In this document: positions 5,642 through 63,425 of the stretch, one piece after another
Numbering within the stretch: position 1 is the first letter of the stretch
Layout of the letters: each line of letters begins with the position of its first letter
DNA from: Pyrinomonadaceae bacterium
GTDB taxonomy: Bacteria; Acidobacteriota; Blastocatellia; Pyrinomonadales; Pyrinomonadaceae
Length of the DNA: 63,827 nucleotides
Direction of reading: 5' to 3'
Assembly: GCA_049799955.1 (NCBI GenBank)
Contig: JBARIW010000075.1
Coordinates: 1 to 63,827, forward strand
Notes under the pieces: generated by a model
Seen by the model: only the letters and a program-made list of their open reading frames with translations
The model's database searches: none
Told to the model about the DNA's origin: nothing
Made by a program: the position numbers and the translations under genes

Positions 5642-5720
5642 AGTGAACAACGAAAAGTGAATAGTGAATAGTGAAGAAAAAATCTTTCACTGTTCACTAT
5701 TCACTTTTCGCTGTTCACTT
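5642..5720. repeat. palindromic hairpin built from tandem heptamers (AGTGAAY x3 / RTTCACT x4); terminator-like between convergent genes
   Basis: agtgaacaacgaaaagtgaatagtgaatagtgaag-aaaaaatc-tttcactgttcactattcacttttcgctgttcactt; overlaps the stop codon of the minus-strand gene 5715..7124. Confidence 0.85.
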
Positions 5721-7124
5721 TCTGAAATTTTCCCAGTCGCCCCAGACCGCGAATGTCGCGCCGACGTTTTGGAGATTGAAGAATAATATTTTGCCGTCTT
5801 TTGAAAAGGTCGAACCGGCAAATTCGCTGGTTTCGAGCTTCGGCGTGATGTTTTTGGCAAAATCGGCAATACGCCCGTCCGGTGTTAAAATTTTCATATA
5901 ATTTTCCGGCGAGCCGCCCGCTCCGGCATAATCGCTGTCTTCGCAGATAAAAAGATGGTTACTTTTCGGGCGCATATACATATTGTCGGGCATATCCAGA
6001 ATTTCGCGGCTCGGCGATTCGAACAGCAAAGTAAGGCGTCCTTCGTCTCTGCTTAAAGGTTCATACATCCAGATTTGCCCGCCGCCGTTGTCGCCGCCGC
6101 TGGTCGAATCAAAATAAATCCTTCCTTTTTTATCGGCAAAACTGCCTTCCAGACGCAGAAATATCGCCGCGTCTTTCGCTTGTCCCTGTTTCTGCACGGC
6201 GAACGGGTCGGTATCTGCTTCCGCCGGGTCGGAATTATCAATCGTTATCCAGTTTGTGATAAGACTTGTTCCGGCTTTCTGACCCTTTCGGGTGTCGTAA
6301 TTCGGTTTATCTTTAACCGCGAGCATCTGCAAAATGCCGCCTTCAGCCAGACGTTTGTTGCGTTTCGGTAAAAAGCGGTAAAATCCGGCGGGCGTCTGGT
6401 CTTCGGTCATGTAAACGACGCCGGAATTTTTATCGACCGCGATGGTTTCGTGTTCAAAACGTCCCATCGCCTTGAGCGGCACAGGCGAGACGGGCGAATT
6501 TGCCGAAGCCGAAACCTCGAAGCAATAACCGTGCGGCTTGGCAAATCCGCCTGTTTGTTTGCCTTTTTTGTCGGTTCTGACGGTTTGTCCGAGCGTCGTT
6601 TCCTCGCACGAAATCCAGCTTCCCCAGGGCGTTCTGCCGCCGCTGCAATTTACCAGAGTTCCGCTCAGGCTGACAAAATCGCGGACGATTTCGCGTGTTT
6701 TCGGATTGATAACGAGCGTCGTCGTGCCGCCGCCAGCCGTTTCGTCGTACGGATTTGCGCCGATTGGCGAACCCGGAATCGGGACTTTTCCGTTTGTAAT
6801 TTCGTGATTGCGAACGACTCGAAGCTCTCCGCGCACCTTAAAAGCCGCCATTCCGTCGTGTTTCGCGGGCGTGCTGTTTTTGTCCGTCATCGGGCTGCCA
6901 ATCTTTCCGATGACGTTGTATTCAAAATCTTTCGGCAACGCAAGGTAAGTTTCGCCCGTATTTTTTGCCGCAACGGGAACGAGCTCGCCGTAGCCGTAAG
7001 CTTTGAAATTCGACAAATCTCCCGTCTGCGCGAAAACTTCGGCGCGCCTTGTCAGACTGCCGCTCGCCAACGCCAAACCGCCCGAAAATAAGCCTAAACG
7101 ATATAAAAATGAGCGTCTGTCCAT
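5715..7124 (-). CDS. phoX: PhoX-family (DUF839) secreted phosphatase with Tat signal
   Basis: N-terminus MDRRSFLYRLGLFSGGLALASG (RRxFL twin-arginine motif). Internal 'NCSGGRTPWGSWISCEE' matches the PhoX/DUF839 signature. Confidence 0.7.
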   Translation of the reverse strand: MDRRSFLYRLGLFSGGLALASGSLTRRAEVFAQTGDLSNFKAYGYGELVPVAAKNTGETYLALPKDFEYNVIGKIGSPMTDKNSTPAKHDGMAAFKVRGELRVVRNHEITNGKVPIPGSPIGANPYDETAGGGTTTLVINPKTREIVRDFVSLSGTLVNCSGGRTPWGSWISCEETTLGQTVRTDKKGKQTGGFAKPHGYCFEVSASANSPVSPVPLKAMGRFEHETIAVDKNSGVVYMTEDQTPAGFYRFLPKRNKRLAEGGILQMLAVKDKPNYDTRKGQKAGTSLITNWITIDNSDPAEADTDPFAVQKQGQAKDAAIFLRLEGSFADKKGRIYFDSTSGGDNGGGQIWMYEPLSRDEGRLTLLFESPSREILDMPDNMYMRPKSNHLFICEDSDYAGAGGSPENYMKILTPDGRIADFAKNITPKLETSEFAGSTFSKDGKILFFNLQNVGATFAVWGDWENFRK

Positions 7125-7125
7125 A

Positions 7126-7223
7126 ATTCAAGATTCAAGATTCAAGATTCAAGATTCAAGATTTAAGATTTAAGATTTTGTCTTTCAATTTTGAATTTTG
7201 AATCTTGAATCTTGAATCTTGAA
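7126..7223. repeat. CAAGATT-family palindromic heptamer-repeat element (copy 1)
   Basis: (ATTCAAG)x5-ATTTAAGATTTAAGATTTT-gtctttc-AATTTTGAATTTTGAATCTTGAATCTTGAATCTTGAA; near-perfect ~45-bp arms. It sits between the stop of 7231..8280 and the start codon of phoX (7122-7124). Confidence 0.9.
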
Positions 7224-7230
7224 CTAGCTA

Positions 7231-8280: not shown

Positions 8281-8409
8281 AAATTTATATTAAAGTTTTT
8301 TGCGAGATTATTATAAAGCAAAAAGTCGGTTATTTATGATATTTTCACGGTTTTCGGTTTAATCCGAAGTTAATTTGCCCGAAACTCGTTCAGATTAGCA
8401 TTTTCAGCC

Positions 8410-8649
8410 CGTAAATAAACTTTTCAACACGTAAATAGACATTTAATGTCGTAGATGAACTTTTCCACGCGTAGATGGATTTTTCCGCTCATAGATAGAC
8501 TTTGCACGCCGTACATGGAGTTTGCACACCGTAGATAGACTTAGTACGCCGTAGATGGAATAAGTACAGCTTAGATAGACTTAGTACAGTGTATATAGAC
8601 TTTTCCGCTCGTAAATGCGCTTTTCCGTTCGCAGACAGACTTTAATTTT
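8410..8649. repeat. degenerate tandem array, 12 units x 20 bp (consensus CGTAGATAGACTTTTCCACG)
   Basis: Exact 20-bp phasing from 8410 to 8649. The units are cgtaaataaacttttcaaca, cgtaaatagacatttaatgt, cgtagatgaacttttccacg, cgtagatggatttttccgct, catagatagactttgcacgc, cgtacatggagtttgcacac, cgtagatagacttagtacgc, cgtagatggaataagtacag, cttagatagacttagtacag, tgtatatagacttttccgct, cgtaaatgcgcttttccgtt and cgcagacagactttaatttt. The array is non-coding, lying between the 5' region of 7231..8280 and the stop of 8642..8845. Confidence 0.85.
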
Positions 8650-8845
8650 CGTCAGTCAAAATTTCCTGCACGCGCCCGACTTGCCCGTCCGTTAAGCGAA
8701 CTTTTATGCCGTGAGGGTGAAAGTTTGAATTGGTCAGCAAATCTTTTACCGTTCCGATTGTTTGTCTTCCGGTTCGCTGGTCTTGTTTGAGGACGATGGC
8801 GACTTTTAATCCGGCGCGGATGTTTTTTCTTTCACGATGCGGCAT
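8642..8845 (-). CDS. YwbE-like small conserved protein (DUF2196)
   Basis: 67 aa; 'TIGTVKDLLTNSNFHPHGIKVRLTDGQVGRV' resembles the YwbE family. Confidence 0.65.
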   Translation of the reverse strand: MPHRERKNIRAGLKVAIVLKQDQRTGRQTIGTVKDLLTNSNFHPHGIKVRLTDGQVGRVQEILTDEN

Positions 8846-9313: not shown

Positions 9314-9319
9314 AATTTG

Positions 9320-16228: not shown

Positions 16229-16352
16229 ATTGGTTTCCTTAAGCTAGAAGTATAACCCGAAATTAAAAATTTGTACCTTTTTTCGCGTTTTTTGTGGTAA
16301 TCTACTGCTGAACTTAGATTTAACTAATACAAACAAGGGGATGGTAAACATA

Positions 16353-16862
16353 ATGGCAGCAAAAAAAGACAGTAAGGCATCGACAACCAAAAAATCGACT
16401 TCGACGAAATCGAAAACAACAAAAAAGAGTTCATCGGGCATCATGGATAAAGTTAAGGATGCGGCGGGTGAAATTCTGACGAATGCGGCGCAGGTTGCGG
16501 CAGCCGGAGCGTTGAATATCGCGGCTGAAGCCGTCAGCGATATGCTGAGCGGCAAAAAGAGCGGCGGAAAAAGCTCTTCGACAAAAGCCAAAACCGGCGG
16601 CGACGCGGGCACGAAGGGAACCGGAAGCGCGGGCAAATCAACAAAAAGCAGCGCAAAGAAACCCGGCGGTGATGCAGGCACAAAAGGTACGGGAAGTGCC
16701 GGAAAATCGACCAAAGCCAAAACCGGCGGAGATGCGGGAACCAAAGGAACGGGCAGCGCAGGCAAATTGACCAAAAGCGACGCAGGTAAAACGGGCGGCG
16801 ACGCCGGAACTAAAGGAACCGGAAGCGCCGGAAAAACATCGAAAAGCGGCAAAGGCAAATAA
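16353..16862 (+). CDS. Lys/Gly/Thr-rich repetitive basic protein (4 x ~19-aa 'KTGGDAGTKGTGSAGKSTK' repeats)
   Basis: SD-like caagggga upstream of ATG at 16353, with an intrinsic terminator directly after. The antisense ORF 16244..16858 is a Pro/Leu shadow of the repeats. Confidence 0.6.
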   Translation: MAAKKDSKASTTKKSTSTKSKTTKKSSSGIMDKVKDAAGEILTNAAQVAAAGALNIAAEAVSDMLSGKKSGGKSSSTKAKTGGDAGTKGTGSAGKSTKSSAKKPGGDAGTKGTGSAGKSTKAKTGGDAGTKGTGSAGKLTKSDAGKTGGDAGTKGTGSAGKTSKSGKGK

Positions 16863-16884
16863 ACCTTCGCCGCAAAAAATAAAA

Positions 16885-16924
16885 ATCCTTAATTCGACAC
16901 AGGTGCGAATTAAGGATTTTTTTA
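16885..16924 (+). terminator. rho-independent terminator (atccttaattcg-loop-cgaattaaggat + T7)
   Basis: Perfect 12-bp stem followed by a T-run. Confidence 0.8.
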
Positions 16925-18652: not shown

Positions 18653-20908
18653 TCAAAAATTCAAAACTAATTCGCCGTCTTTCTCTTCGACCGAAACGCT
18701 TCCGCCATCGGTTAGTTTGCCGAAAAGAATTTCCTGCGCGAGCGGCTGTTTGATTTTTTCGTGAATCAGACGCGCCATCGGACGCGCGCCGTATTTGCCG
18801 TCGAAACCGTGTTCGGCGAGCCAGACTTTCGCGCTTTCGGTGAGTTGTACGAGAACGCGTTTTTCGGCAAGCTGACCGTTTAGCTCGTTGATAAATTTAT
18901 CGACGATGAGCGTGATATGTTCGAGTTCGAGCGCTTTGAACGGCACCCACGCGTCGAGACGATTACGGAATTCGGGCGTGAATGTGCGTTCTATCGCTCC
19001 TTTTGCCTGACCTTTCGAGCTTGCCTGATTGCGAAAACCGACGCCGCCCGAAGATAATTCTCTCGCGCCCGCGTTGGTCGTCATAATCAAAATCACGTTG
19101 CGGAAATCGGCTTTTTTGCCGTTGTTGTCGGTCAGAGTCGCCGAATCCATCACCTGCAAGAGCAAATTAAAAAGGTTCGGATGCGCTTTTTCGATTTCGT
19201 CAAGAACGAGAACGGCGTGCGGCGTGCGCATAATCGCTTCGGTAAGAAGCCCGCCCTGGTCGTAGCCGACGTATCCCGGCGGCGCGCCGATGAGCCGCGA
19301 AACGGTGTGCGGCTCGGCATATTCGCTCATGTCGTAGCGCATAAATTCGATGCCGAGCTGTTCCGCTAATTGCTTTGAAAGCTCGGTTTTGCCAACGCCG
19401 GTCGGACCGCTGAAAAGAAACGAGCCGACGGGTTTTGTTTCGTGTCCGAGACCGGCGCGTGAAATCTGAATCGCGTTGACAATCTGGTCAATCGCTTCGT
19501 CCTGACCGAAAATTACGCCTTTCAAATCCGGCTTGAGCGTCTTCAAACGGTCTTTTTCGTCGGCGACAACCGTTTTCGGCGGAATTTTCGCCATCCGCGC
19601 AATCGCGTTTTCGACCATCTGAACGGAAATAAATTTCGGGCGCGTTTCGACGGGCAAAAGCTTCGTCGCCGCGCCGACCTCATCGATTACGTCAATCGCC
19701 TTGTCGGGCAAATGACGGTCGTTGATGTATTTTCCGGCGAGTTCGGCGGCGACTTTTAAAGCTTCGTCCGAATATTTTACGCCGTGATGTTCTTCGTAAA
19801 ATTTCTTTAAGCCTTTTAAGATTTCGTAAGTTTCGTCAATCGTCGGCTCGCCGATTTCGATTTTCTGAAAGCGTCTCGCAAGTGCGCGGTCGCGTTCAAA
19901 AGCGGCTTTGTATTCGCTGTATGTGGTCGAGCCGATACAGCGCAGAGCGCCGTCGGCAAGCGCGGGTTTTAAGATATTCGAAGCGTCCATCGCGCCGCCC
20001 GAAACCGCGCCCGCGCCGACGATTGTATGAATTTCGTCGATAAAAAGAATCGAATTTTCGTGTTTTTGCAGCTCGCTGATAATCGCTTTGAAACGCTGTT
20101 CGAAATCGCCGCGATAACGCGTTCCGGCAAGAACCGCGCCCATATCGAGCGCGAAAACTTTCGCGTCTTTTAAGACTTCCGGCACATTTCCCTCGCTGAT
20201 TTTCAGCGCCAAACCTTCCGCCAGCGCGGTTTTGCCGACGCCCGGCTCGCCGACGTAAAGCGGATTGTTTTTCTTTCGGCGGCAGAGAACCTGAATAGTT
20301 CTTTCGATTTCCTCCATCCGCCCGATTATCGGGTCAATTTCGCCTTTCGCCGCTTTTGCGACCAATTCGACGGTGAAAGATTCGAGCGGTTTTCTCTTTT
20401 TCGGTCGCGCGCGTTCTTCGGCAAATTCCTCGTCTTCCATCCCTTCGCCAATCGGGTCGAAATCCAGACCGTTATCGATTTTCGAGATGCCGTGCGCGAT
20501 ATAATTCATAATATCGAGCCGTGTTATGCTCTGCTGTTTGAGCAGATAAACAGCATAGCTTTGCTCTGCCTGATAAATTGCGGCGAGAATATTTCCGCCG
20601 TCAACGGCTCGCTGACCGCTGCCTTCCGCCTGCAAAACCGCGTATTGAATCGTCGCCTGAAACGTCGAAGTAAGCTCCGGCATCATCTTTGAGCCGTCGG
20701 GCATTTTCTCCAGAACGTCGGTGAAGTATTCCTCTAAAGATTTGGCTATTTCCTCAATTTTCGCGCCGCAGTTAAACAAAATATCGCGCGCGGCGGTGTC
20801 TTCGAGCAAAGCGAAAAGCAGATGCTCAAGCGTTACATATTCGTGTTTGTGCTTGACGGCTTCATCGACCGCAAAGCTTAACGTTTCTTCTAATTCTCTT
20901 GTCAACAT
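18653..20908 (-). CDS. clpA: ATP-dependent Clp protease ATP-binding subunit ClpA
   Basis: 751 aa, N-domain 'MLTRELEETLSFAVDEAVKHKHEYVTLEHLLFALLED', two AAA+ modules. Confidence 0.95.
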   Translation of the reverse strand: MLTRELEETLSFAVDEAVKHKHEYVTLEHLLFALLEDTAARDILFNCGAKIEEIAKSLEEYFTDVLEKMPDGSKMMPELTSTFQATIQYAVLQAEGSGQRAVDGGNILAAIYQAEQSYAVYLLKQQSITRLDIMNYIAHGISKIDNGLDFDPIGEGMEDEEFAEERARPKKRKPLESFTVELVAKAAKGEIDPIIGRMEEIERTIQVLCRRKKNNPLYVGEPGVGKTALAEGLALKISEGNVPEVLKDAKVFALDMGAVLAGTRYRGDFEQRFKAIISELQKHENSILFIDEIHTIVGAGAVSGGAMDASNILKPALADGALRCIGSTTYSEYKAAFERDRALARRFQKIEIGEPTIDETYEILKGLKKFYEEHHGVKYSDEALKVAAELAGKYINDRHLPDKAIDVIDEVGAATKLLPVETRPKFISVQMVENAIARMAKIPPKTVVADEKDRLKTLKPDLKGVIFGQDEAIDQIVNAIQISRAGLGHETKPVGSFLFSGPTGVGKTELSKQLAEQLGIEFMRYDMSEYAEPHTVSRLIGAPPGYVGYDQGGLLTEAIMRTPHAVLVLDEIEKAHPNLFNLLLQVMDSATLTDNNGKKADFRNVILIMTTNAGARELSSGGVGFRNQASSKGQAKGAIERTFTPEFRNRLDAWVPFKALELEHITLIVDKFINELNGQLAEKRVLVQLTESAKVWLAEHGFDGKYGARPMARLIHEKIKQPLAQEILFGKLTDGGSVSVEEKDGELVLNF

Positions 20909-20914
20909 ATGCTA

Positions 20915-21184
20915 CTAATTTTTTGCTGCTTCTTGATTAGCTCTTTCCTCTAACCATAAATTAACTAAAGTTTCCGTTGATACGCCTTTCTTTTCGGCAA
21001 TCGTGTGAAGCTTAGATGAAAGCGAAGTCTCAACCGCGTAATAAAAAACGTCGGATTCTAAATCAATTTCAAATTTCGCTTCCTCGGTTTTATCCCAAAC
21101 TTCGCCCAAATCGTGCGAATCCCAATACTCGCCAATTTCCTGATAAGATTTCGCTTCTGAAATTGAACTTTTATTTTCTGCCAT
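20915..21184 (-). CDS. brnA: BrnA-like antitoxin (RHH C-terminus)
   Basis: 89 aa; '…YQEIGEYWDSHDLGEVWDKTEEAKFEIDL…TLVNLWLEE' is the typical partner of BrnT. Overlaps brnT by 14 bp. Confidence 0.7.
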   Translation of the reverse strand: MAENKSSISEAKSYQEIGEYWDSHDLGEVWDKTEEAKFEIDLESDVFYYAVETSLSSKLHTIAEKKGVSTETLVNLWLEERANQEAAKN

Positions 21185-21455
21185 ACTGTTTTCTTTCCCT
21201 TTCGGTCATATCTCTTGCCGATAAAATCAAAGCGCGTCTGTCATTTTTATAGACGAAAAAACAAATCAAATAACGTCCCGAATCGGTTTGACCAAATGCC
21301 GCATATACATTTTCACCTTTTCGATGCCCTTTTTCAACAAAACGAATACGTGGATTATTGAGAAAAAGCTCGCGCACTTCTTCCGTTTCAACGGAATGTT
21401 TCCAAATCAATTTCTGAACGATTTCTTCGAGCCAAACGAATCCGGTAATTTTCAT
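21171..21455 (-). CDS. brnT: BrnT (DUF497) ribonuclease toxin
   Basis: 94 aa; MKITGFVWLEEIVQKLIWKHSVETEEVRELF … LILSARDMTERERKQY matches the BrnT pattern (W…KHG..F.E…F … IISARKAT..ER..Y). Confidence 0.8.
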   Translation of the reverse strand: MKITGFVWLEEIVQKLIWKHSVETEEVRELFLNNPRIRFVEKGHRKGENVYAAFGQTDSGRYLICFFVYKNDRRALILSARDMTERERKQYGRK

Positions 21456-21456: not shown

Positions 21457-21789
21457 TTACTCTTCCTCGACCGTGCAGAGAAGCGGGTATTCGTGCGCCT
21501 TTGATAAATTCATCGCTTTTTCGGCTTTCATCGTGGCGACTTCGAACGAATAAACGCCCGCGACGCCAATGCCTTCGTTATGAACCTGGAACATAATCGT
21601 AAAAGCTTCGATGTCGGAGCGCATAAAGACGGTTTTGAGTATAAAAACGACAAAATCCATCGTCGTAAAATCATCGTTGTGAAGGATGACTTTATACATT
21701 TTCGGCTTTTCGAGCTTTGTCTCGCTCTCGGTCAGAACGTCGCTGTCTTGTTCAATATCGGGAAAATCCGGCATATTATCATTTATCAT
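21457..21789 (-). CDS. clpS: ATP-dependent Clp protease adaptor ClpS
   Basis: MYKVILHNDDFTTMDFVVFIL…HEYPLLCTVEEE is canonical ClpS. Confidence 0.9.
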   Translation of the reverse strand: MINDNMPDFPDIEQDSDVLTESETKLEKPKMYKVILHNDDFTTMDFVVFILKTVFMRSDIEAFTIMFQVHNEGIGVAGVYSFEVATMKAEKAMNLSKAHEYPLLCTVEEE

Positions 21790-21850
21790 TTATCATTGAA
21801 CATCTACCAAATGATTTAATAATAAATGATAAATGTTCAATGATAAATGT
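21777..21850. repeat. palindromic heptamer-repeat hairpin (ATCATTT x3 … AAATGAT) overlapping the clpS start codon
   Basis: tcatttatcattgaacat … atgttcaatgataaatg is a 17-bp perfect inverted repeat. The 5' arm encodes the clpS N-terminus MINDN. Confidence 0.85.
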
Positions 21851-22969
21851 TTAGATTTTATTAACTTCAAAATACGCTTTAATGGCGTTGTATTTGCTCG
21901 AATTGTCTAAGATGTCAAAAATCTTTTCATAGTTTTCCAAGCCTTCGACCTTGTGCGTCAGCATACGGGAAAGCCAGCCCGCGTACATCGCTTCGCAGAG
22001 CGCCAAATCTTTTACGCCAAGCTCGAAATGCTCGCGGTTGGCGTTGACCGTTCCGACCATTGCGCGATTTCCCAGAACGAACATCTGATTGATTTTGTCC
22101 GAAGGAACGGCGTCGGTTTTGCGCTCGCCGCCGGTTACGGAAGCGAGAATCAAAATGCCGTTTTCGTTCAAACTCTGCATCGCGTCGAAGATAATCGGCG
22201 AATAGCCCGTGCATTCAAAAACGAGGTCGTATTCGCCGTATTTTTTCGTACTTTCGGCAATCGATACATCGTCGGTCGAATCGTAAGTCGCGCCGATTGC
22301 TTCGATTAAATCCGCGTTCAGATAGCCTTCGCGCTTTTGCTTGCCGAAGCCGTGAACTTCGTAGCCGCGCAGGCGCAAAGCCATTATGGTCAGCAGCCCG
22401 ACGTTTCCCGTTCCGAGAACGGCGGCGGTTTTCGGATGCCAGATTTTCAAGCGTTCCTGGATGTCGCTCGCCTGTTTCAAGCCTTTTTCGATAATCGAAA
22501 GCGGTTCGAGAAGAACGGCGATTTCTTTAATCGCGGGCGGAATTTTTATTAAAAAATCTGCGCTTTCAGCGTAAAATTCCGACATATAGCCGTGCAGACG
22601 CGAGATTCCGCGCTCGTAATATTTGTCGTCGGTCGTAAAATCCTGCTCGCCGATTTTATCGTAAATGCTCGAACCGCGCGGACGCCTGACGGTGGCGACG
22701 ACGAAATCGCCTTTTTGTAATTCCTTTACATTTTCGCCCGTTTCGACGACGCGCCCGAAGTTTTCGTGTCCGAGAACGAGAAAATCGAAGCCTTTCGGCG
22801 CGACGCCGTATTCGCCGTTGTTTATTTCTCTGTCCGTTCCGCACGCTCCGACGCGCAAAACTTCGACCAGAACGCCGCGCCCGTCTTTAATTTCATCAAT
22901 TTCCGGTTTCTTCATTTGAACCAGCTTCACTGATTTCGCCTGTTTCGGCGTAACTGCTACTGCTTTCAT
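21851..22969 (-). CDS. zinc-dependent alcohol dehydrogenase family (glucose 1-dehydrogenase / threonine-DH-like)
   Basis: 372 aa; 'VGACGTDREI' catalytic-zinc motif, Rossmann fold. Confidence 0.8.
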   Translation of the reverse strand: MKAVAVTPKQAKSVKLVQMKKPEIDEIKDGRGVLVEVLRVGACGTDREINNGEYGVAPKGFDFLVLGHENFGRVVETGENVKELQKGDFVVATVRRPRGSSIYDKIGEQDFTTDDKYYERGISRLHGYMSEFYAESADFLIKIPPAIKEIAVLLEPLSIIEKGLKQASDIQERLKIWHPKTAAVLGTGNVGLLTIMALRLRGYEVHGFGKQKREGYLNADLIEAIGATYDSTDDVSIAESTKKYGEYDLVFECTGYSPIIFDAMQSLNENGILILASVTGGERKTDAVPSDKINQMFVLGNRAMVGTVNANREHFELGVKDLALCEAMYAGWLSRMLTHKVEGLENYEKIFDILDNSSKYNAIKAYFEVNKI

Positions 22970-23021
22970 AAATTATCCTCTTTAACTTTAGAGTTTAGCG
23001 TTTGTGCGGAAAAAGATTAAA

Positions 23022-23092
23022 TGCAGAGACGCTGGAGACGCGGAGAAAAGAAAATTTATTTCTTAAAATCTCTGCGTCTCCAGCGTCTTTGC
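23022..23092. repeat. GCAGAGACGC-family palindromic element (intergenic copy), terminator position
   Basis: tgcagagacgctggagacgcggaga-loop-tctctgcgtctccagcgtctttgcg; 22/25 complementary arms, and the loop is itself palindromic (aagaaa…tttctt). Confidence 0.85.
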
Positions 23093-23121
23093 GTTAAAAA
23101 AATACTTAATTTGCAATGACA

Positions 23122-26100
23122 TTAAACTTTTACTGCGACCGTCGCTTTGCGTTCCAGCTTGCCCCAACCGACGAGCGCGCCGCGAATTGCGGTCAGAACC
23201 GATTTGACCATCACCCAATACATTACCTGACGATAACCGAAACGCTGCAAGAGAAGCCAGCCGAGCAATCGTTTCTGCTCGCGTTTCTCCATCATAAACG
23301 CGGCGAACGCGCCGAACCAGTCAACCGCCAGAAAAAGCGCGTAATAAAACATCACCGCGCCCAGATTTGTCGGCGTATGCGCGTATTCTTTTTGATGTTC
23401 GAGATAGCCGATAAGCACGGAAACAAGCGTCCAGACGAACATCAAATCCATAAGCGGCGAAATGAGCGGAAACAAAACCTGAAAAATCCAGACGTTCGGC
23501 ATCGCGACGAAACCGAGCGCGCCGTATTTCGGATTGAGAAACGCCCGTTTGTGTTTCCACATACACTGTAAAGTTCCGAACGACCAGCGAAATCTCTGTT
23601 TTGCAAGCCCGCGAAGCATGTCGGGCGCTTCGGTCAGACCGACTGCGTTTTCTTCATAACCGATGTAATAGCCGAGCTTGCGAACCTGAATCGTTAAATC
23701 CTGGTCTTCGGCGAGCGTGTCGGACGAAAATCCGCCGATTTTTTCCAGAACCTCGCGCCGCCACGCGCCGACCGAACCGGGAACAACCGTGATGCAGTTC
23801 AGGGACGCAAAAGCGCGGCGGTCGAAATTCTGCGAAGTAACGTATTCGAGCGCCTGCCATTTGGTAACGATATTTATACGGTTTCCGACCTTCGCATTTC
23901 CGGCTACCGCGCCGATTGTTTTATCGGCAAAACGGCGCGCGAGCGCGGAAATCGTCTGCGATTCAAAAAGCGTGTCGGCATCGAGCGCGACGATAATCTC
24001 GCCTTTCGCCAGCCGCCAGCCGAAATTCAATGCCTCGGCTTTCCCGCCGTTTTCTTTACGAAAAATCGAAACTTTTTTGTTCGCGCCGAAATTTTCACGG
24101 GCAAGTTCAAACGTGTTATCGCCCGAGCCGTCGTCAACGACGATAACCTCAAAATTCGGGTAATCGGATTCAAGCAGGCTTTCAATAGTTCGGACGATTA
24201 CTTTTCCTTCGTTAAAAGCCGGAACGACGACCGAAACGCGCGGCTCGTATTTTTCGCCGAAATGGTCGTGCTCGCGCCTTCTTGAGCGCAGATATTGAGC
24301 GAAAGCAAGAATGCCGATGAGCGCCATCCGGCTCAAACCCAAAACGATTCCGATGATAAACGTCCACTGCATCAGCCAGCCGCCGATTGATATTCCGTAG
24401 AAAACAAACGAATCGGTTTCGGCGTAAAACGTCCGATTTTCGGGAACTTGCGGCATCGCCTGCTCGCGCGAAATATCCGCTAAATCGGAAACGGTCGTGA
24501 ACTCGAAACCACGCGCTTTTAGTTCGTGAATAATTCGCGGCAAAGCTTCGACGGTCGCCGAACGGTCGCCGCCGCCATCGTGCAGCAAAACTATCTCGCC
24601 GCGCGCTTCGAGCGTTGTAACTGCCGCCGCCGCAAGGGTTTCGTTGACCAAATCATCGGCATTGCGCGGCGTTCCATCGTCGTTTTTCAATTTCCAGTCG
24701 TCCGGGTCGATATGCAAGCCGACGGAAATATAACCTAAATTCTGCGCCTGAATGGTTGGCTCGACCTCGTCCGGCGTGCGCGGCTCGGCATCGCCGAAAT
24801 AAGGCGCGCGGAAAAGACGCGTCGAATGTCCGGTCAGCGATTCGATAAGGCGCTGGGTCGCGTTTAGTTCGATGTCTGTAACCTGACGCGGAACTTCGCC
24901 CAGATTCGGATGCGTGAACGAATGATTGCCGATTTCGTGACCTTCGGCGACGATTCGTTTGATTAAATCGGGATTTGCCTGACCGTTTTCGCCGACGACG
25001 AAAAACGCGGCTTTGACGTTTTCCTGTTTTAGAATATCGAGAATTTTCGGCGTCCAGACCGGGTCGGGTCCGTCATCGAAAGTCAGAACGATTTTCCCGA
25101 TTTTATCGCCCGTTCGCTGGATGACGTAAGACGACGGAACCTGCCGGTAAATTTCATTTGTAACCGCGCCGCCGGCGTCCGATTTCAAATCGCGCACGCC
25201 GTCCTGCGGCTCGGCTTTGACCTGAAGAATCTCGCCCGTTCCTTCAAAATCGACATCGTAGCCGTATTTGATAATTTTTAAATCATCCGACAAAAAACTC
25301 TGATTGTCCGCGCCGAATATTTTCCACAAACTCGGGTCTTCGCTGCCCAGACGCCACAGCGCAAAACCTGCGACTTTATAAGGTTCTGCGGATTGAATTT
25401 CGTTGTAAGCCGTAACCGCGTCGAGAAACCAGACGTTGTGCGTTTTGCCATCGTCCTCGACGTAGCTGAAATACGGATTTTTCGATGCGCTGTCAAACTT
25501 TATTTCGGTCGGGCTGTCCAGAGATTCTTTCGCGGCGAGTACGGACTGCTGAAACGAAATGTCTTCGGCTTCCTTCGCGCCGTTTGTCCAGTTGTAGCCG
25601 TAATTGCCGAAACAGACGACGGTTTTGGCTGGCGCAAGCTCCGTCATACGCTTTTTCAAAATCGTTTCAAACCATTCCTGACCGGCAATCGAACCGGCTT
25701 CGCCCGTCGACCAGTGCTGGTCATAAGCCATCAGCATCAGATAATCGATTACATTTGCGTAAGCGCGATAATTCCAGTCGGGATTGTCGAAGGGAACTGC
25801 CTGCGCGAGCGTCAAATTTCGTTTTTGAAACTCCGCGTGCAGCTCTTCCATAAATGTGAAAAGACTCGTCTGCGCGCTCGCCGGAACTTCCTCGATGTCA
25901 ATCGTGATGCCGCCGAATTTGTATTTCGCAATCGTTTCGAGCAATGATTTTATAAGTTTTTGGCGCGCGTCCTCCGTTGAAACGGCTTTTGCCAGAATTG
26001 CCGAATTCCATTGCTCGTTTTTATAGTTTTGCAAAAGCGGCAGAACCGGCATATCAGGCTTTTCCTGCTGAATCAAATCGAGCGCCTGTTGGTCAATGTC

Positions 26101-26694
26101 CAGAACGAGCGGGTTTTCATCGTCGCCCGAAAGCCGAATCCATTCGGGAACGAGCCAATCAAGCCTGTTGATATTCTGCTTGAGCGAAGCATAGCTGGAA
26201 TCGTCCCAGTTGACGTAAAAACCGATTGCCAGGGGCTTTCCGTTTGTATTTAAAGGCGGCGTCGGCGCGGGCTTGGTCGCCAGAAACATTTCTTTGTCGG
26301 ATAATTTTTGCCGCTTGATTTCGTCTCGTTTGCTCTTTTCAAGCTTTACCTGTTTGAGCAGCGAGTCATGTTTGCCGAGTTTAGGTATTTCGGGAAGCTG
26401 AATCTGCGTGTCTTCCTGCTGCGGCAAAAGCACCGACGGTTTTAAGCGAATTTGCGGAAGAAACGGATTTATCAGGACGCTGACGACGAAAAAGACGAAA
26501 AAAGCCGTTATTACGATTGCCAGCACAAGTCCGAGATAATTAAAAACACGCCAGCGTCTGCCTTTTTTGTCAAAAAAGACAGGTTTTTTGTTGTCCAAAA
26601 GCGAATCGTTTATCATATTTTTTAAAACCAGATAATAGATGCATAAACGAGATTTGGAGGCTAATGTTTTGAGTTTTTTATTCCTCGGAAGCAA
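23122..26694 (-). CDS. tri-domain membrane polysaccharide synthase: GH18-like hydrolase domain + NodB-type (CE4) polysaccharide deacetylase + family-2 glycosyltransferase (PgaC/IcaA/NodC-like)
   Basis: 1190 aa. N-terminal TM then a GH18-like domain ([11 protein letters not shown]…[10 protein letters not shown]); CE4 NodB motifs (TFDDGP…, …[11 protein letters not shown]); GT2 (VVVPAFNEG…VVDDGSGD… with processive 'QRFRWSFG' motif) plus C-terminal TM helices. The start overlaps the upstream GH63-like gene by 17 bp. Confidence 0.8.
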
Positions 26695-32782: not shown

Positions 32783-32870
32783 AGATTTAAGATTCAAGAT
32801 TTAAGATTCAAGATTTAAGATTTTGTCTTTCAATTTTGAATCTTAAATCTTGAATCTTAAATTTCGAATC
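32783..32870. repeat. CAAGATT-family palindromic heptamer-repeat element (copy 2), convergent-gene terminator position
   Basis: agatttaagattcaagatttaagattcaagatttaagatTTTGTCTTTCAATTTTGAAtcttaaatcttgaatcttaaatttcgaatc. It shares the centre ttttgtctttcaattttgaa with copy 1 and is translated as the C-terminal tail of 32808..34553. Confidence 0.9.
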
Positions 32871-36051: not shown

Positions 36052-36061
36052 GAATTAGCCA

Positions 36062-36128
36062 CGAACAAACACGAAAGAACACGAAAAAGAAGTAAATAAT
36101 TTTTCGTGTTCTTTTTGTGTTTGTTCGT
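36062..36128. repeat. long near-perfect hairpin (about 33-bp arms) between convergent genes
   Basis: ttagccacgaacaaacacgaaagaacacgaaaaa-gaagtaaataa-tttttcgtgttctttttgtgtttgttcgtggctaa. Confidence 0.85.
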
Positions 36129-36145
36129 GGCTAATTTCTTAACGC

Positions 36146-40475: not shown

Positions 40476-40579
40476 AATTCAAGATTCAAAAGATTTAAGA
40501 TTCAAGATTCAAGATTCAAGATTGGGAATGCTGTTTTCTAATCTTAAATTTTAAATCTTAAATTTTGAATCTTAATTTT
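40476..40579. repeat. CAAGATT-family palindromic heptamer-repeat element (copy 3)
   Basis: aaattcaagattcaaaagatttaagattcaagattcaagattcaagatt-gggaatgctgttttct-aatcttaaattttaaatcttaaattttgaatcttaatttt. It lies between the truB stop and the start of the alpha/beta hydrolase gene. Confidence 0.9.
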
Positions 40580-46307: not shown

Positions 46308-46322
46308 TACGCAAACGAAAAA

Positions 46323-46352
46323 AAGGCTGGATAAATTTATCCAGCCTTTTCC
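46323..46352. terminator. bidirectional rho-independent terminator (aggctggataa-att-tatccagcct + T-run)
   Basis: Perfect stem between convergent genes. Confidence 0.8.
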
Positions 46353-53639: not shown

Positions 53640-55090
53640 TTCTTAGGTTGACTTACTGCTATACCTATAGTAATATAGTTAAGGTAGTTAAATTAAATCT
53701 TTTGAGGTATTTAAGCGATGAACGAACAACGAATTTTAGAAAGAAAACAACGCGGTTATGACATCTCCCAAAGATACACGATTCGACAAGACGGTAATTT
53801 CTGGTTTGTTCCGTCAAGCAAAAGCGGAAAGTATAAAGTCGATTTGAAACGGCAGACCTGCAACTGTATGGATTTTGAAACACGAAAAATGAAGTGCAAA
53901 CATCTTTGGGCGGCAGAATTTCACTACGAGCGCGAAGTTTTAAAAGCTATTGATGATGTTCCCGAAGCTGTTAAAGAAGTTCCGAAGAAAAGAACTTATG
54001 CGCAACCGAATTGGTCTGCATATCACAAATCGCAGACTTGCGAAAAAGGGCAATTCCTTTACCTTTTGCGAGAACTTACCAAAGGAATTGAAAGCCCGAC
54101 TCAAAAGACTGGCAGAACGCGGCATAATTTCTCGGATTTGATTTTCTCAATGTGTTACAAAGTTTATTCGTGCTTTAGCTCACGCCGCTTTATGACAGAC
54201 CTTAAAACCGCTTTTGATACTAACTACCTTGAACGGCTTCCGAGCTACAATTCACTAATCGAAGCGTTTTCTCTGGAAGAAATCACGCCTTTACTGCATT
54301 ACTTAATCGAAATGAGTTCTTTGCCGCTTGCGGCAATCGAAAAGGATTTCTGCGTTGATTCGACTGGACTTTCAACGTGTCGTTTCTATCGTTGGTTTCA
54401 CGCGAAATACACAGATAAGCGATTGATTGACCACAGAGATTGGGTAAAACTTCACGCGATGTCGGGCGCGAAAACGAACGTCATTACAGCCGTTGAAATT
54501 TCAAACCGATACGAACACGATTCTAATTACTTCAAACCGCTTGTTGATAAAACGGCTCTGAGATTTGCGATTGATGAAGTCAGCGCAGATAAGGCGTATT
54601 CAAGCGAAAAGAATATGCAGACCGTTTTGAATCACGGCGCGATACTCTTTCATCGCTTTCAAGAAAAACGCGACCTCTGGGCACTTCTACACGGGCGAGA
54701 CTTGGAAAAACTGCTTTCACTACTACTCGCTGAATCAAGAGAAATTCCTACAGCACTACCACAAAAGAAGTAACGCCGAAACTGTTTTCAGTATGATAAA
54801 AGCGAAATTTGGTGATTCTTTGAGAAGCAAAACGGAAACGGCTCTGATTAACGAAACTTTAGCGAAAGTCGTTTGTCATAACATCTGCGTTTTAATAACG
54901 AGTATGCACGAATTAGGATTAAAGCCGAAGTTTCGGGAAAACTTAAAGTAGAACGTTAGACTACACTATATGTAGTGTACCACGAATGAGACAACGTATT
55001 GACTTTAAAGGGCTTTGAGAGAATAATAAAGGCTAGGTTGTTGTAGCAACCTAGCCTAGAACCTGTTAGCGGGTGCAAAACAAGTAGGGC
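53640..55090 (+). mobile_element. IS element (IS4/IS5-superfamily DDE transposase with N-terminal SWIM zinc finger), probably inactive; ends uncertain
   Basis: Transposase ORF plus about 150-bp flanks. Imperfect terminal inverted-repeat candidates are …caaGTTCTTAGGTTGac (left, 53636-53652) and caGGTTCTAGGctaggttg (right, reverse complement of about 55040-55075). AT-rich. Confidence 0.45.
53718..54951 (+). pseudogene. frameshifted DDE transposase (SWIM zinc finger 'CNCMDFETRKMKCKHLW' + DDE_Tnp_1-like core)
   Basis: The ORF 53718..54773 carries the D…D region (…FCVDSTGLS…, …ADKAYSS…). The conserved C-terminus (…GHFYTGETWKNCFHYYSLNQEKFLQHYHKRSNAETVFSMIKAKFGDSLRSKTETALINETLAKVVCHNICVL…) is in the +1 frame from about 54636 to the stop at 54949-54951. 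Confidence 0.6.
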
Positions 55091-59826: not shown

Positions 59827-60243
59827 ATGAAACTTAAGCTAAGCATTTACCCCGACGAAGGATTACTCTACGCAACCTATTCAGGAAAATTCTTATTGGC
59901 GGATTCGGAAAGAATTTTTCTGCAAATCATTGAGGCTGGTAAGCGGCATAAAGTCCAAAAAGTGCTCGTAGACGGCAGAGCGGTTACCGGAAGTCTTCAA
60001 ACCCTGGAAAGGTTTTGCTATGGCGCATTTGTGGCGGAAAAAGCCTTTGAACTTTCCTGCCATGCCAAATTCGCCTATGTTCTTAAAGAGCCGGTGCTCG
60101 ACCCTGAGAGATTTGGCGAAACAGTTGCTATCAACCGGGGTATGTTTGTAAAGGCATTCGACAACATCAAAGACGCTGAGCAATGGCTCGGCACAAACCT
60201 GGATAATAAATCAATCGCACTCGACGACGCCATAAAAAATTGA
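59827..60243 (+). CDS. hypothetical protein
   Basis: SD agagggga then ATG at 59827; 139 aa; no family recognised. Confidence 0.5.
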   Translation: MKLKLSIYPDEGLLYATYSGKFLLADSERIFLQIIEAGKRHKVQKVLVDGRAVTGSLQTLERFCYGAFVAEKAFELSCHAKFAYVLKEPVLDPERFGETVAINRGMFVKAFDNIKDAEQWLGTNLDNKSIALDDAIKN

Positions 60244-60305
60244 TAATTGATAATTGATAATTGGAAGACTCTTTCTTAATTATCAATTATCAATTATCAA
60301 TTATC
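60241..60305. repeat. palindromic heptamer-repeat hairpin (TGATAAT x3.5 … ATTATCA x4) between convergent genes
   Basis: ttgataattgataattgataattgg-aagactctttctt-aattatcaattatcaattatcaattatcaa. Confidence 0.9.
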
Positions 60306-60312
60306 AATTTTC

Positions 60313-61416: not shown

Positions 61417-61427
61417 CAAATGTTCGT

Positions 61428-61504
61428 GGCTGGGTAGCTCAGCTGGTTAGAGCGTCGGATTCATAACCCGAAGGACGAGTGTTCAAGTCACTCTCCAGCC
61501 ACCA
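61428..61504 (+). tRNA. tRNA-Met (anticodon CAT); could alternatively be tRNA-Ile2 (lysidine)
   Basis: 77 nt including the encoded CCA. The cloverleaf has a 7-bp acceptor stem (GGCTGGG/TCCAGCC with G7·U), a D-arm GCTC/GAGC, anticodon loop TTCATAA and a T-arm GAGTG-TTCAAGT-CACTC. The 1:72 positions are paired, so it is not an initiator. Confidence 0.9.
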
Positions 61505-61518
61505 TATTTAATAGATTC

Positions 61519-61884
61519 TTAGGAGCGATTATGCTCCTTTTCTTTTTGCTTATAATGTTCTTTTCGATGACAGTTTGAGCATAAAACTTGACACTTTGCG
61601 ATTTCTTTTTGTAATAATTTCACACTCAGAAATTTATTAACTCTTCCTAAGGCAAACTCCTTTTCATTTGGATTAATATGATGGAAATCCAGGCAAGCCG
61701 GATGATTTTCTTCGCAAATTTCACATTTTAACGTCGCTTTATATTCTTTCAGCCAAGTCTTAATTTTCTTATCTCTGTTTCTTACGTAGGTAATGTGTTT
61801 TGCTTTATTTTCCTGATACCATTTACGCATGTATTCGCGTTGGTATTCGCGGCGTTTCTGCTTATTTTTAATCGGCATAGACAA
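61519..61884 (-). CDS. HNH endonuclease-family small basic protein
   Basis: 121 aa; 'CEICEENHPACLDFHHINPNEKEF…CQVLCSNCHRKEH' carries the CxxC…HH…N…CxxCH His-Me finger pattern. AT-rich and tRNA-adjacent. Confidence 0.55.
   Translation of the reverse strand: MSMPIKNKQKRREYQREYMRKWYQENKAKHITYVRNRDKKIKTWLKEYKATLKCEICEENHPACLDFHHINPNEKEFALGRVNKFLSVKLLQKEIAKCQVLCSNCHRKEHYKQKEKEHNRS
61521..61548. terminator. rho-independent terminator after the tRNA (aggagc-gattat-gctcct + T-run), shared with the convergent HNH gene
   Basis: 6-bp GC-rich stem followed by tttctttttg. Confidence 0.7.
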
Positions 61885-61997
61885 ATATTATTCAAAATAA
61901 GTTTTATAAACAAGCTAAGTGTTATAAATCTTAAAGCGGTAAGTCTTTGATTCTTACCGTTTTATTTTTGCGCGGAAATCGGTATCATCTTGTATCT

Positions 61998-63320
61998 ATG
62001 AAGCTCTTTTTAACTGCTTTGATTACGCTTTCAATTTTTCTGGCAGGCGCGGAAACATACTCACAGACGCCGAAAGATTTGGCGGAGATGTGGGAAAAGA
62101 AGCATATCACGAACATTTTTCCTTCAAACGTCAGGCATAAAGATTTAAAAAATTATCTCGAACAGCTTAAAAAGCTTGAAATAAAAGTCGAAGAAGTCGG
62201 GCGCAGCTACGGCAACCGCGAGATTTACCAGATGGAATGGGGAAAAGGCGCGACCCGAATTTTTCTGTGGTCGCAGATGCACGGCGACGAGCCGACGGCG
62301 ACTTCCGCGCTGGTTGATATGTTCGCCTTTTTGCAGAAAAACCGCGATAAAGGCTGGGTTAGAAAACTGGAAGAAACGCTGACGATTCGCGCCGTTCCGA
62401 TGCTTAATCCCGACGGTGCGGAACTTTACCAGCGCAGAAATCTGCAATATATTGACATCAACCGCGACGCTTCGAATCTGCAAACGCCCGAAGCGCAGCT
62501 TCTCAAACGTCTGCGCGACGCGTGGCAACCCGTTATCGGTTTTAACCTGCACAATCAACAGTCTTTGACGACCGTTAGCGGCTCGACCAATCAGGCGGCG
62601 ATTTCGTTTCTGGTCGTCGAGGGAAATCCCGAATTTCGTAACAACGAGGGAAACGAGCGTAACAAACGCCTCTGCGCGGCAATGATTATCGCGCTGCAAA
62701 GCTTTATGCGCGGAAACATCGGGCGCTACGTCGATGCGTATAATCCGACCGCTTTCGGCGACAAATTTTCCGATTGGGGCACGCCGACGATTTTGATTGA
62801 AACCGGCGCGCTCTACGGCAAAGATGAAATGTTTCTGGTCAAAATGAATTTTATCGCTTACTTAACCGCGCTGAATTCGCTGGTTGACGGCAGCGAGAAG
62901 ATTTTAAGCCCGATGAATTACGAATTTATTCCGAATAACAGTTCGGGAAATCTTTTCAATTTTATTTTCCGCCGCGCTAACGTCGTCAATAATTCCGCCG
63001 AAACTGTTCAGATTCAATCCGCCGATGTCGCCGTCAATACGCAGCGCCGACGCGCCGGAGAATACACATCGGCATTTGTTCAGACGACGGGCAGCTTACT
63101 AAATTCCAGAGGCTTGGAAGAATACGATGCGAGCAATTTTTATCTCGTTCCGAGATTCAGCGGCGTTACCGTCCGCGCCGGCGCGTTGGGCGAATTTTTC
63201 TTTTACCGCAAAGACCGAGCAATCGATTGGAAAGCGATTGATTTGGAAAAACAGTTTCCGCCCGACGCAATTTTCAGCGGCGGCAAATGGATAAAAGGCG
63301 AGCTGACAAAATTAAAATAA
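61998..63320 (+). CDS. secreted M14-family zinc carboxypeptidase
   Basis: Signal peptide; 'WSQMHGDEPTATSAL' (HxxE zinc site) and 'PMLNPDGAE'. Confidence 0.8.
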   Translation: MKLFLTALITLSIFLAGAETYSQTPKDLAEMWEKKHITNIFPSNVRHKDLKNYLEQLKKLEIKVEEVGRSYGNREIYQMEWGKGATRIFLWSQMHGDEPTATSALVDMFAFLQKNRDKGWVRKLEETLTIRAVPMLNPDGAELYQRRNLQYIDINRDASNLQTPEAQLLKRLRDAWQPVIGFNLHNQQSLTTVSGSTNQAAISFLVVEGNPEFRNNEGNERNKRLCAAMIIALQSFMRGNIGRYVDAYNPTAFGDKFSDWGTPTILIETGALYGKDEMFLVKMNFIAYLTALNSLVDGSEKILSPMNYEFIPNNSSGNLFNFIFRRANVVNNSAETVQIQSADVAVNTQRRRAGEYTSAFVQTTGSLLNSRGLEEYDASNFYLVPRFSGVTVRAGALGEFFFYRKDRAIDWKAIDLEKQFPPDAIFSGGKWIKGELTKLK

Positions 63321-63338
63321 TGGTTTTCGCCGCAGGGG

Positions 63339-63425
63339 AAAAAATTAACAGGGATAACAGGATGAACAGGGATAAAACAAATTATTTAAATATCCCTGTC
63401 TATCTTGTTATCCCTGTTAATTTTT
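63339..63425. repeat. palindromic hairpin built from tandem AACAGGGAT units (terminator position after the M14 gene, upstream of recN)
   Basis: aaaaattaacagggataacaggatgaacagggataaaac-aaattatttaaat-atccctgtctatcttgttatccctgttaattttt; about 31-bp arms with 2 mismatches. Confidence 0.85.

Follow-up and report, generated by a model that had tools for sequence, protein, structure and literature searches.

Array hairpins in the window

The stretch of DNA considered here, hereafter the window, is contig JBARIW010000075.1 (63,827 nt), which belongs to a metagenome-assembled genome (MAG) of a soil Pyrinomonadaceae bacterium of the phylum Acidobacteriota. The best genome relatives of its proteins are from Pyrinomonadaceae and Chloracidobacterium, and Pfam searches with 50 of its open reading frames (ORFs) recovered ordinary housekeeping genes; the sole mobile gene among these ORFs encodes a DDE_Tnp_1 transposase of an insertion sequence (IS; positions 53718 to 54773), which sits in a low-GC stretch (~43.5%). 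Between these genes, and at several places within them, lie the elements that are our subject, namely, hairpins whose arms consist of a short unit repeated in tandem and the inverted complementary array. The window contains at least 11 such array hairpins together with 3 elements that are arrays only. Rfam searches of the window at gathering thresholds recovered tRNA-Met and matched no other known RNA family.

A search for hairpins with a stem of ≥16 bp recovered 12 in the window, 9 of which are internally periodic; the corresponding means for 20 dinucleotide-preserving shuffles are 1.8 and 0.15. A preliminary description of the window had named five intergenic palindromes, and all five are indeed present, four at convergent gene junctions and one at a tandem junction. 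Their arms of 17 to 35 nt are 76 to 100% complementary, so that the description of them as perfect palindromes holds for the element at 60236 to 60311 only. Folded as RNA, the five have free energies of -28 to -54 kcal/mol and z values of -6.9 to -14.3; none of the 200 shuffles made of each element was equally stable, and across all 11 palindromes z ranges from -4.8 to -14.3. The arm period of the named elements is 7 nt, except at 63340 (9 nt) and 36053 (irregular). At least nine different units occur in these 64 kb, with CAAGATT represented three times and GAGACGC twice. When the periodic hairpins of the window and of related loci (see below) are taken together, 28 of the 42 have a unit of 7 nt, 6 one of 8 nt, 5 one of 9 nt, and 3 one of 6 nt. 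The elements are as follows; those at 23017 to 23098, 28416 to 28505, 33013 to 33108, 33575 to 33652, 40996 to 41026, and 41199 to 41229 had gone unnoticed earlier, and five of these six lie in frame in coding sequences (CDSs).

5642-5719: AGTGAAY palindrome between convergent genes; 34-nt arms (94% complementary), about five units per arm, 10-nt loop; -49.8 kcal/mol, z = -11.6
7124-7226: CAAGATT-family palindrome between the Sacchrp_dh stop and the PhoX start codon; 7.4 versus 5.3 units
21773-21856: ATCATTT palindrome between the ADH stop and the ClpS start; 17-nt perfect core in 34-nt arms (76%); z = -6.9
23017-23098: GAGACGC-family palindrome with 8/9-nt units, between the gene for a 1190-aa GH18/deacetylase/GT2 protein and ADH; z = -10.1
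28416-28505, minus strand: GAGACGC-family palindrome of CGCAGAGA 8-mers; 90 nt, in frame in a GH63-like gene
32782-32875: CAAGATT/TAAGATT palindrome with a 14-nt higher-order repeat, between convergent genes for a sigma-54 activator and an O-antigen ligase
33013-33108, minus strand: GAGAAAAGG/GAAGAGGA palindrome, in frame in an O-antigen ligase loop (site 2), with a 16-nt higher-order repeat; z = -4.8
33575-33652, minus strand: adjacent non-complementary arrays, AAGTGAR ×5 and CCTTTGCG ×3, in frame in the O-antigen ligase (site 1); z = -1.4, no hairpin
36053-36136: irregular CACGAA-type palindrome with ~40 paired bp; the convergent flanking genes encode Abhydrolase_2 and peptidase M43; -53.9 kcal/mol, z = -14.3
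40477-40580: CAAGATT-family palindrome between the TruB stop and the start of the next gene
40996-41026, minus strand: lone TTCAAAG (coding strand) ×4.4 array, in frame in TruB (EVQSSKFKVQSS)
41199-41229, minus strand: lone ATTACGA (coding strand) ×4.4 array, in frame in TruB (ELRITNYELR)
60236-60311: AATTGAT/TGATAAT palindrome between convergent genes; 28-nt arms (100%), 3.7 versus 4.6 units; z = -10.5
63340-63425: AACAGGGAT 9-mer palindrome with irregular mirrored 9-8-10 units, between convergent genes; 35-nt arms (91%); z = -11.3

Hairpins are retained and units turn over at orthologous sites

Using PhoX and ligase homologs, we reached six syntenic contigs that come from three independent sources (Logan, JGI, and NCBI):

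L081 (Logan): PhoX, 95% protein identity
L082 (Logan): PhoX, 80% protein identity
L084 (JGI): PhoX, 80% protein identity
L085 (JGI): ligase, 79% protein identity
L086 (NCBI): ligase, 81% protein identity
L087 (JGI): ligase, 75% protein identity

The window and L081 are colinear over 7.5 kb with 91.3% nucleotide identity, and within this region only three blocks are strongly divergent, the two largest being the palindromes that flank PhoX and the third a 33-nt intergenic stretch. The units found at orthologous sites are as follows.

PhoX 3' end: AGTGAAY in the window; AGTTCAA in L081; AGTCCAG-like in L082; AAAAGGY in L084
PhoX 5' spacer: CAAGATT in the window; AAGTTCA in L081; TGAAAAC in L082; TGGAAAA in L084
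Sigma-54/ligase spacer: CAAGATT in the window, L085, and L086; ordinary terminator in L087
TruB 3' spacer: CAAGATT in the window and L085
GH63 loop: CAGAGACG palindrome in the window; CGGAGACG palindrome in L085; lone GGTCAGC array in L087
M43 3' spacer: CACGAA-type in the window; GGATGAR in L085 and L086; AATTACG in L087
ADH 3' spacer: ATCATTT in the window; AAACAGGAT 9-mer palindrome in L085

Orthologous sites thus usually retain a hairpin or array, and its unit is kept, altered in concert, or replaced. Elements conserved with the same unit in relatives, which the preliminary description regarded as the mark of ordinary repetitive extragenic palindromic (REP) families, are nearly what we observe, in that units recur across loci and genomes, yet orthologous sites also differ. 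Nor are the units unrelated to each other, as had been proposed: CAAGATT is used three times and GAGACGC twice in the window, the AACAGGGAT family reappears in L082 and L085, and AATTACG, AAGTGAA, AATTGAT, and GAGACGCG arrays recur in other genomes. Syntenic loci at 75 to 95% protein identity are, in effect, a natural experiment, in which the hairpin persists, the unit stays, drifts in concert, or is exchanged, and coding constraint splits palindromes into half-arrays (see below). In L081, a single unit is used on both sides of PhoX, and this is the unit of the TTCAAAG array in TruB of the window. A metagenome scan with the ligase as the query recovered 27 mostly short loci of ≤66% identity, which added a few examples and no close relatives.

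Some further differences among these contigs were noted in passing. In the spacer between the DUF2196 and Sacchrp_dh genes of the window, a 20-nt unit (roughly GTCTATCTACGnnGTnCAAA) is repeated ~12 times in tandem (8380 to 8640) without being palindromic, and the orthologous spacers carry palindromes of AACAGGGAT (L082) and of GACGAGT (L084). Where synteny with L081 breaks, the window has a hairpin (16 to 69) that is not periodic and whose stem measures 14 bp. L082 (11504 to 13550) differs from the window and L084 by additional small genes downstream of PhoX, one of which encodes an HNH endonuclease, and these may be a small mobile insertion.

Copies within genes obey the reading frame

The palindrome at 28416 to 28505 codes for roughly RRDAETLRE...SASLRLCGE and constitutes a ~30-aa insertion in the GH63-like protein that is missing from the closest genome homologs; at this loop, other lineages bear their own, different insert of ~25 aa. 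In the O-antigen ligase, the palindrome occupies one loop (site 2) and the double array another (site 1), and an alignment of 24 homologs shows that both of these loops, as well as the C terminus, are hypervariable in length, with these variable parts resembling translated heptamer arrays (e.g., RITNYELRI, FSLFTFHFSLFTF, and SKIQNLKSKIE). At the DNA level, L085, L086, and L087 have arrays at both ligase loops, the family differing in nearly every genome. The GAGAAAAGG family occupies site 2 of the window's gene and site 1 of that of L085, the ATTACGA unit is found at site 2 in L085 and L087 and additionally as a palindrome in L087, and site 2 of L086 holds an ATTCCGG palindrome. The two lone arrays of TruB are kept in L085 although the neighboring codons differ; the ATTACGA array is identical in the two genomes, and the TTCAAAG array shows three T/C differences, all at one position of the unit. 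We also note that the DNA for the conserved TruB motif ITIYEL (41027 to 41047, minus strand), ATTACGATTTACGAATTA, resembles 2.5 ATTACGA units; its position is immediately upstream of the GTTCAAA array and 170 nt from the ATTACGA array.

These comparisons show that a reading-frame filter shapes which arrays survive in genes. In the full palindromes found in CDSs (units CGCAGAGA, CGGAGACG, GAGAAAAGG, and ATTCCGG), every unit is free of stops on both strands, a property of ~47% of random heptamers. Units with a stop in one orientation (AAGTGAR, TTCAAAG, and ATTACGA) are found in CDSs as half-arrays only, in the open orientation, and their partner arm is either absent or a different array, even one of another period. 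The elements matter for the proteins themselves, in which they add or rewrite loops and C termini and shift stop codons, and in Acidobacteriota MAGs they are likely to mislead programs that call genes, predict terminators, or annotate repeats.

Intergenic copies at gene 3' ends

The intergenic palindromes lie at five of the nine convergent junctions and at four tandem junctions, with none in divergent spacers, and in the window such copies are confined to the 3' ends of genes. Several touch or overlap coding ends: the PhoX stop codon (TGA, 5715 to 5717) lies inside the outermost unit of the palindrome at 5642 to 5719, the palindrome at 32782 to 32875 adjoins the stop of the sigma-54 activator and codes for the C terminus of the O-antigen ligase, and two copies (7124 and 40477) also adjoin the next start codon. 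The palindromes at 60236, 63340, and 5642 have an A-run on one flank and a T-run on the other. In L087, the sigma-54/ligase spacer contains an ordinary A-run/GC-stem/T-run terminator in place of the hairpin array. Judging from their position and from this classical terminator at an orthologous site, we consider the intergenic array hairpins to be probably uni- or bidirectional transcription terminators or 3'-end stabilizers. We further infer that it is the presence of a hairpin at gene 3' ends, and not the sequence of its unit, that is under selection. The preliminary description had set the palindromes apart from terminators as a separate class. It rightly pointed out that GC-stem terminators also exist in the window (16881 to 16921, 46321 to 46350, and ~61521), although the one at 16881 is AT-rich. 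The separation itself is not supported: the array hairpins occupy terminator positions, and an ordinary terminator is found at one such site in L087.

Downstream of the AACAGGGAT palindrome, a half-array of CTCTGTGC ×3 is present at 63435 to 63458, and a CTGTGTG motif follows the AAACAGGAT palindrome in L085 (~19020 to 19035).

Distribution beyond the window

Eighty GH63 loci from all phyla (1.3 Mb) were compared. Long periodic heptamer hairpins were found only in loci labeled Acidobacteriota or subordinate taxa, and the non-acidobacterial loci yielded only two short matches of period 6, in L020 and L077 (Rokuibacteriota and Nitrospira contigs). The AAGTCAG family is common to the GH63 loci L004 (two copies) and L011, and more distant Blastocatellia-like metagenome contigs contain heptamer hairpins, too.

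Exact-match scans of IMG/VR with three units of the window recovered palindromic arrays in many contigs, which bear other families as well. For instance, the AATTGAT/TGATAAT unit of the element at 60236 forms palindromes in unrelated contigs. Palindromes of AATTACG and GGCAGAG, as well as (AATTCGT)n(ACGAATT)n palindromes adjoining genes, are present in a prophage contig of Fischerella thermalis CCMEE 5273 (L151), and a further contig (L128) has (AATTCGT)n(ACGAATT)n, AAGTAGC, and GAGTCAA palindromes, likewise adjoining genes. The TTGTCAG/TTGTTAG arrays of L279 are like those given for Nostoc PCC 7120 (PMC2408588), in which ATTGCGAATTG occurs 79 times (PMC2408588). The AATTACG/ATTGCGA unit is common to relatives of the window and to cyanobacterial arrays (PMC2408588, Table 3), although arbitrary heptamers also give 8 to 42 matches in IMG/VR. 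Of two control heptamers, the scrambled sequence ATCAGTA proved to be another abundant array family of IMG/VR, and the second gave 8 matches; because the scrambled control is itself abundant, the IMG/VR counts cannot show a restricted unit vocabulary.

Two side observations from these scans may be recorded. ATCAGTA ×3 recovered contigs L300, L298, L323, and others with up to 10 arrays, on both strands, in 9 kb. A Mu-like phage contig (L152; 55% GC) contains three AATTACG palindromes and lone AATTACG arrays, with five exact-match sites, and its terminase ORF, whose relatives come from Desulfobulbus, Geobacter, and Acidobacteriota, falls ~40 aa short of the length of its homologs.

Processes and alternative explanations

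Three kinds of pattern bear on how the elements change. (i) A slippage pattern is seen in the unequal copy numbers of the two arms (7.4 versus 5.3 and 3.7 versus 4.6 units) and in the perfect 14- and 16-nt higher-order repeats. (ii) Copying from arm to arm is seen in irregular variant units at mirrored positions in the elements at 5642, 23017 (a CTGG unit), and 28416 and, by inspection, also in those at 63340 and 36053; between the window and L085, the GH63 element differs by one A/G change in two units of each arm. Template switching at quasipalindromes is an established mechanism (Ripley; Lovett laboratory) that would yield such arm-symmetrizing changes. (iii) Copying between loci is seen in the CAAGATT copies at 7124 and 32782, which share an identical center of ~33 nt including the loop; this center is missing from the orthologs of both sites (L081 for one, L085 and L086 for the other), and therefore at least one of the two was overwritten in the lineage of the window. 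The loop of the copy at 40477 resembles that of the sigma-54/ligase copy of L085, and in L082 the AACAGGGAT element occupies another locus (8741 to 8826), loop and termini included, and is found in L085, as AAACAGGAT, after ADH. Neither fixed termini nor target-site duplications emerged from a comparison of family copies and of orthologs, and the array ends are ragged. Nor were clean empty sites found in close relatives, where the sites are filled by another family or a terminator; the inserts are missing only in distant GH63 and ligase homologs.

We favor, with a probability of about 0.5, the interpretation that the elements are heptamer-array hairpins like those of the short tandemly repeated repetitive (STRR) elements, i.e., lineage-wide, fast-evolving palindromic microsatellites that probably serve as terminators and that change by slippage, by template switching from arm to arm, and by the copying of sequence from locus to locus. 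The patterns of these three processes are directly visible, and the mechanisms behind them might be as follows. Between genes, a long stem at the 3' end would act as a terminator or stabilizer, with selection holding the hairpin but not its sequence. Slipped-strand mispairing would gain, lose, and homogenize the 7- to 9-nt units within an arm, intramolecular template switching or hairpin-directed correction could copy one arm onto the other, and ectopic gene conversion or template switching between arrays may spread unit families, and sometimes whole centers, to other sites. Within genes, only open-frame variants persist, as a full palindrome if the unit is stop-free on both strands and otherwise as single or mismatched arrays.

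Several points weigh against this interpretation. The stems, with 28 to 40 AU-rich bp, are unlike those of canonical intrinsic terminators, and the copies at 7124 and 40477, which adjoin start codons, would need read-through or a promoter within the element. Arm mismatches show no G·U bias toward the transcribed strand and, if anything, the opposite: counted over the minimum-energy folds of all the palindromes, there are 28 G·U pairs in plus-strand RNA versus 10 in minus-strand RNA, and the plus strand has the larger number in 9 of the 11, irrespective of gene direction. Hence, the arm mismatches are mostly G/T on the plus strand, an excess that may come from a strand-asymmetric mutation bias. 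No intergenic array-only intermediates were found in the 64 kb, and the formation of array and palindrome would therefore be either closely linked or subject to strong filtering. The interpretation accounts neither for how sequence is copied from one locus to another nor for the preference for 7 nt, and a purely mutational model does not predict that different phyla have identical units, as is the case for AATTACG in Acidobacteriota, in cyanobacteria, and in the Mu-like phage contig.

The main rival, which we regard as possible but unlikely, is that these are non-autonomous elements like MITEs (miniature transposable elements with inverted repeats), REP doublets forming hairpins (REPINs), or foldback elements, moved in trans (e.g., by a REP-associated tyrosine transposase [RAYT] or a hairpin-recognizing HUH enzyme of the IS200/IS605 type), so that turnover is repeated insertion at hairpin hot spots and the tandem units are secondary. 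This explanation fits the recurrence of families, both in one genome and from genome to genome, at loci that are not orthologous and in some cases with an unchanged loop, and it also fits the ~30-aa GH63 insertion relative to the nearest genome homologs and the presence of one family at different ligase loops in different genomes. In-frame palindromic insertions reportedly have a precedent in the Rickettsia palindromic elements (RPEs). REPINs are hairpin doublets mobilized by RAYTs (PMC3116915). However, the termini are undefined, the array ends are ragged, target-site duplications are lacking, and no close relative has a clean empty site. Neither the window nor the Pfam-annotated genes of L081 to L087 include a Y1/RAYT gene, and the sole transposase is that of the DDE-type IS, whose ends are unrelated (its candidate inverted repeats bear no resemblance to the heptamer arrays). 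Furthermore, lone arrays and mismatched arm pairs in CDSs are hard to obtain by inserting a ready-made palindrome. As had been recognized at the outset, transposition of one element cannot give the pattern, in which many units share one architecture. The converse proposal, that each site generates its element purely locally by heptamer expansion and then inversion, with every unit independently invented, draws on the at least nine units in 64 kb, the different units at orthologous sites, the persistence of arrays even where the arms cannot be complementary, and the slippage-attributed excess of heptamers in many bacteria (PMC4692102 and PMC4679880, citing Mrazek 2007). It is nevertheless quite improbable, being already largely contradicted by the shared centers: loops and irregular unit patterns are common to non-orthologous loci, and the same units occur in several genomes and phyla. 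The preliminary account of slippage followed by template-switch inversion thus survives in what it says of process, as the unequal arms, higher-order repeats, mirrored variants, and orthologous unit changes accord with it, but not in the sense of purely independent inventions.

A dedicated, horizontally transferable machinery (e.g., a templated polymerase, a reverse transcriptase, or a nuclease-ligase) could instead write or propagate heptamer hairpins in cyanobacteria, Acidobacteriota, and others, on whatever DNA is in the cell, including their prophages, with a preference for stalled forks or hairpins at gene ends and for permissive protein loops. If real, it would account for units, such as AATTACG, that are the same in several phyla and in prophages. 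Three points speak for it: the architecture and even the AATTACG/ATTGCGA unit are common to Pyrinomonadaceae, Fischerella, Nostoc, and contigs of phage-like character (PMC2408588); TAACTGA repeats occur in several phyla, which has been noted as suggestive of horizontal transmission (PMC4679880); and there is a sharp preference for 7 nt (28 of 42 elements). Even so, we judge it improbable: a repeat-generating enzyme, which the preliminary description had also considered, was found neither in the window nor in the syntenic loci, and shared units are possibly less special than they appear, as arbitrary heptamers have tens of IMG/VR matches. In addition, we know of no biochemical precedent for such a machinery. 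It is very unlikely that the elements are not structural hairpins but arrays of binding sites for a protein, such as a regulator, a nucleoid protein, or a single-stranded RNA or DNA binder of the cold-shock type that reads heptamers. Three heptamers would make two helical turns. CspB does bind direct heptamer repeats, one protein per heptamer (as reviewed in PMC4679880). Against this, the units are too diverse for one binder, the arms are complementary wherever coding permits, with variants mirrored, and none of the elements lies in a divergent promoter spacer. An artefact of short-read metagenome assembly, to which palindromes and tandem repeats are prone, is scarcely credible when contigs that stem from other samples and other assemblers (NCBI, Logan, and JGI) carry the class at syntenic positions and when the in-frame copies keep open long ORFs that NCBI annotates as coding.

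Other features of the window

A BrnT toxin/CopG-type antitoxin pair is encoded between ClpA and ClpS (20915 to 21455). The 1190-aa protein mentioned above is a fusion of GH18, polysaccharide deacetylase, and GT2 modules whose gene (23122 to 26694) lies between GH63 and ADH; in L085, GH63 and ADH are adjacent without the fusion gene. An ORF with no Pfam match (16244 to 16858; 204 aa) contains internal repeats of 60, 69, and 129 nt at 16578 to 16848 and presumably encodes a low-complexity protein.

Comparison with known repeat systems

Heptameric STRR sequences have been known in cyanobacteria since 1990, and a general excess of 7-nt repeats in bacteria has been known since 2007, with the origin and function of both unexplained. 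Other systems resemble the elements of the window in part. Rho-independent terminators share the position after the stop codon, especially between convergent genes, and, for several elements, the A-run and T-run flanks; however, the stems in the window are 3 to 5 times longer, AU-rich, and repetitive, and some copies lack a T-run or lie inside genes. The foldback (FB) transposons of Drosophila have inverted arms built of short tandem repeats. They are eukaryotic, kilobase-sized, and sometimes coding, and their likeness to the present elements is one of architecture only. RPEs are reportedly palindromic repeats that lie in frame in coding genes and add loop peptides (Ogata et al. 2000 are said to have described them). 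The same kind of in-frame palindromic insertion is seen in the elements at 28416 to 28505 and 33013 to 33108, which leave their ORFs open. Nevertheless, RPEs form families of unique sequence, 100 to 150 bp long, in another lineage, whereas the elements of the window are arrays of short units, a composition that makes sequence homology between the two implausible; the mechanism of mobility is unexplained in both.

REPs and REPINs are likewise short intergenic hairpin families, dispersed in genomes, with proposed roles in termination or mRNA stability (PMC3116915, PMC3733652). Their arms are unique sequences of 20 to 40 bp with GTAG or CGTC heads, whereas the arms in the window are tandem arrays with ragged ends, and CGTC is found in the window elements only in GAGACGC units, internally. 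According to PMC4692102 and PMC4679880, citing Mrazek 2007, heptamer repeats are over-represented in many bacteria, slippage of the polymerase being the cause put forward, and closely related strains differ in their arrays. The GGGAATC repeats of Xanthomonas, the GGGGAYT repeats of Nostoc, and the TAACTGA repeats of Beggiatoaceae, cyanobacteria, and Bacteroidetes are, like those described here, mostly intergenic arrays that vary in length and sequence between close relatives. They are, however, single-unit families, mostly direct and located 5' of genes, as opposed to the many units in inverted pairs at 3' ends in the window, although some Xanthomonas arrays also occur as inverted pairs (PMC4692102). 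TAACTGA arrays within ORFs are found only in the stop-free orientation, and their spread over several phyla has been taken to suggest horizontal transmission (PMC4679880).

The closest counterparts are the STRR sequences of filamentous cyanobacteria, usually with 7-bp repeats, which can form intergenic hairpins; roles in transcript stability, translational coupling, pausing, and termination have been proposed for these hairpins, whose function is unknown (PMC2670836). Heptamers of Calothrix are also cited in PMC4692102. Common to both are tandem 7-bp units, several families per genome, a mostly intergenic location, and inverted arrays that form hairpins. The window differs in coming from Acidobacteriota and not from filamentous or heterocyst-forming cyanobacteria and in that 8- and 9-nt units are common. 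In-frame copies in protein loops, the stop-codon rule, and unit turnover at orthologous sites are documented for the window, and some of these may already be known for cyanobacteria. A literature search found no account of such repeats in Acidobacteriota. The comparison of syntenic loci makes terminator function, the dynamics of slippage and template switching, and copying between loci testable. The array class described here is of a kind already known, and Acidobacteriota are a second, unrelated phylum for STRR-type hairpins.

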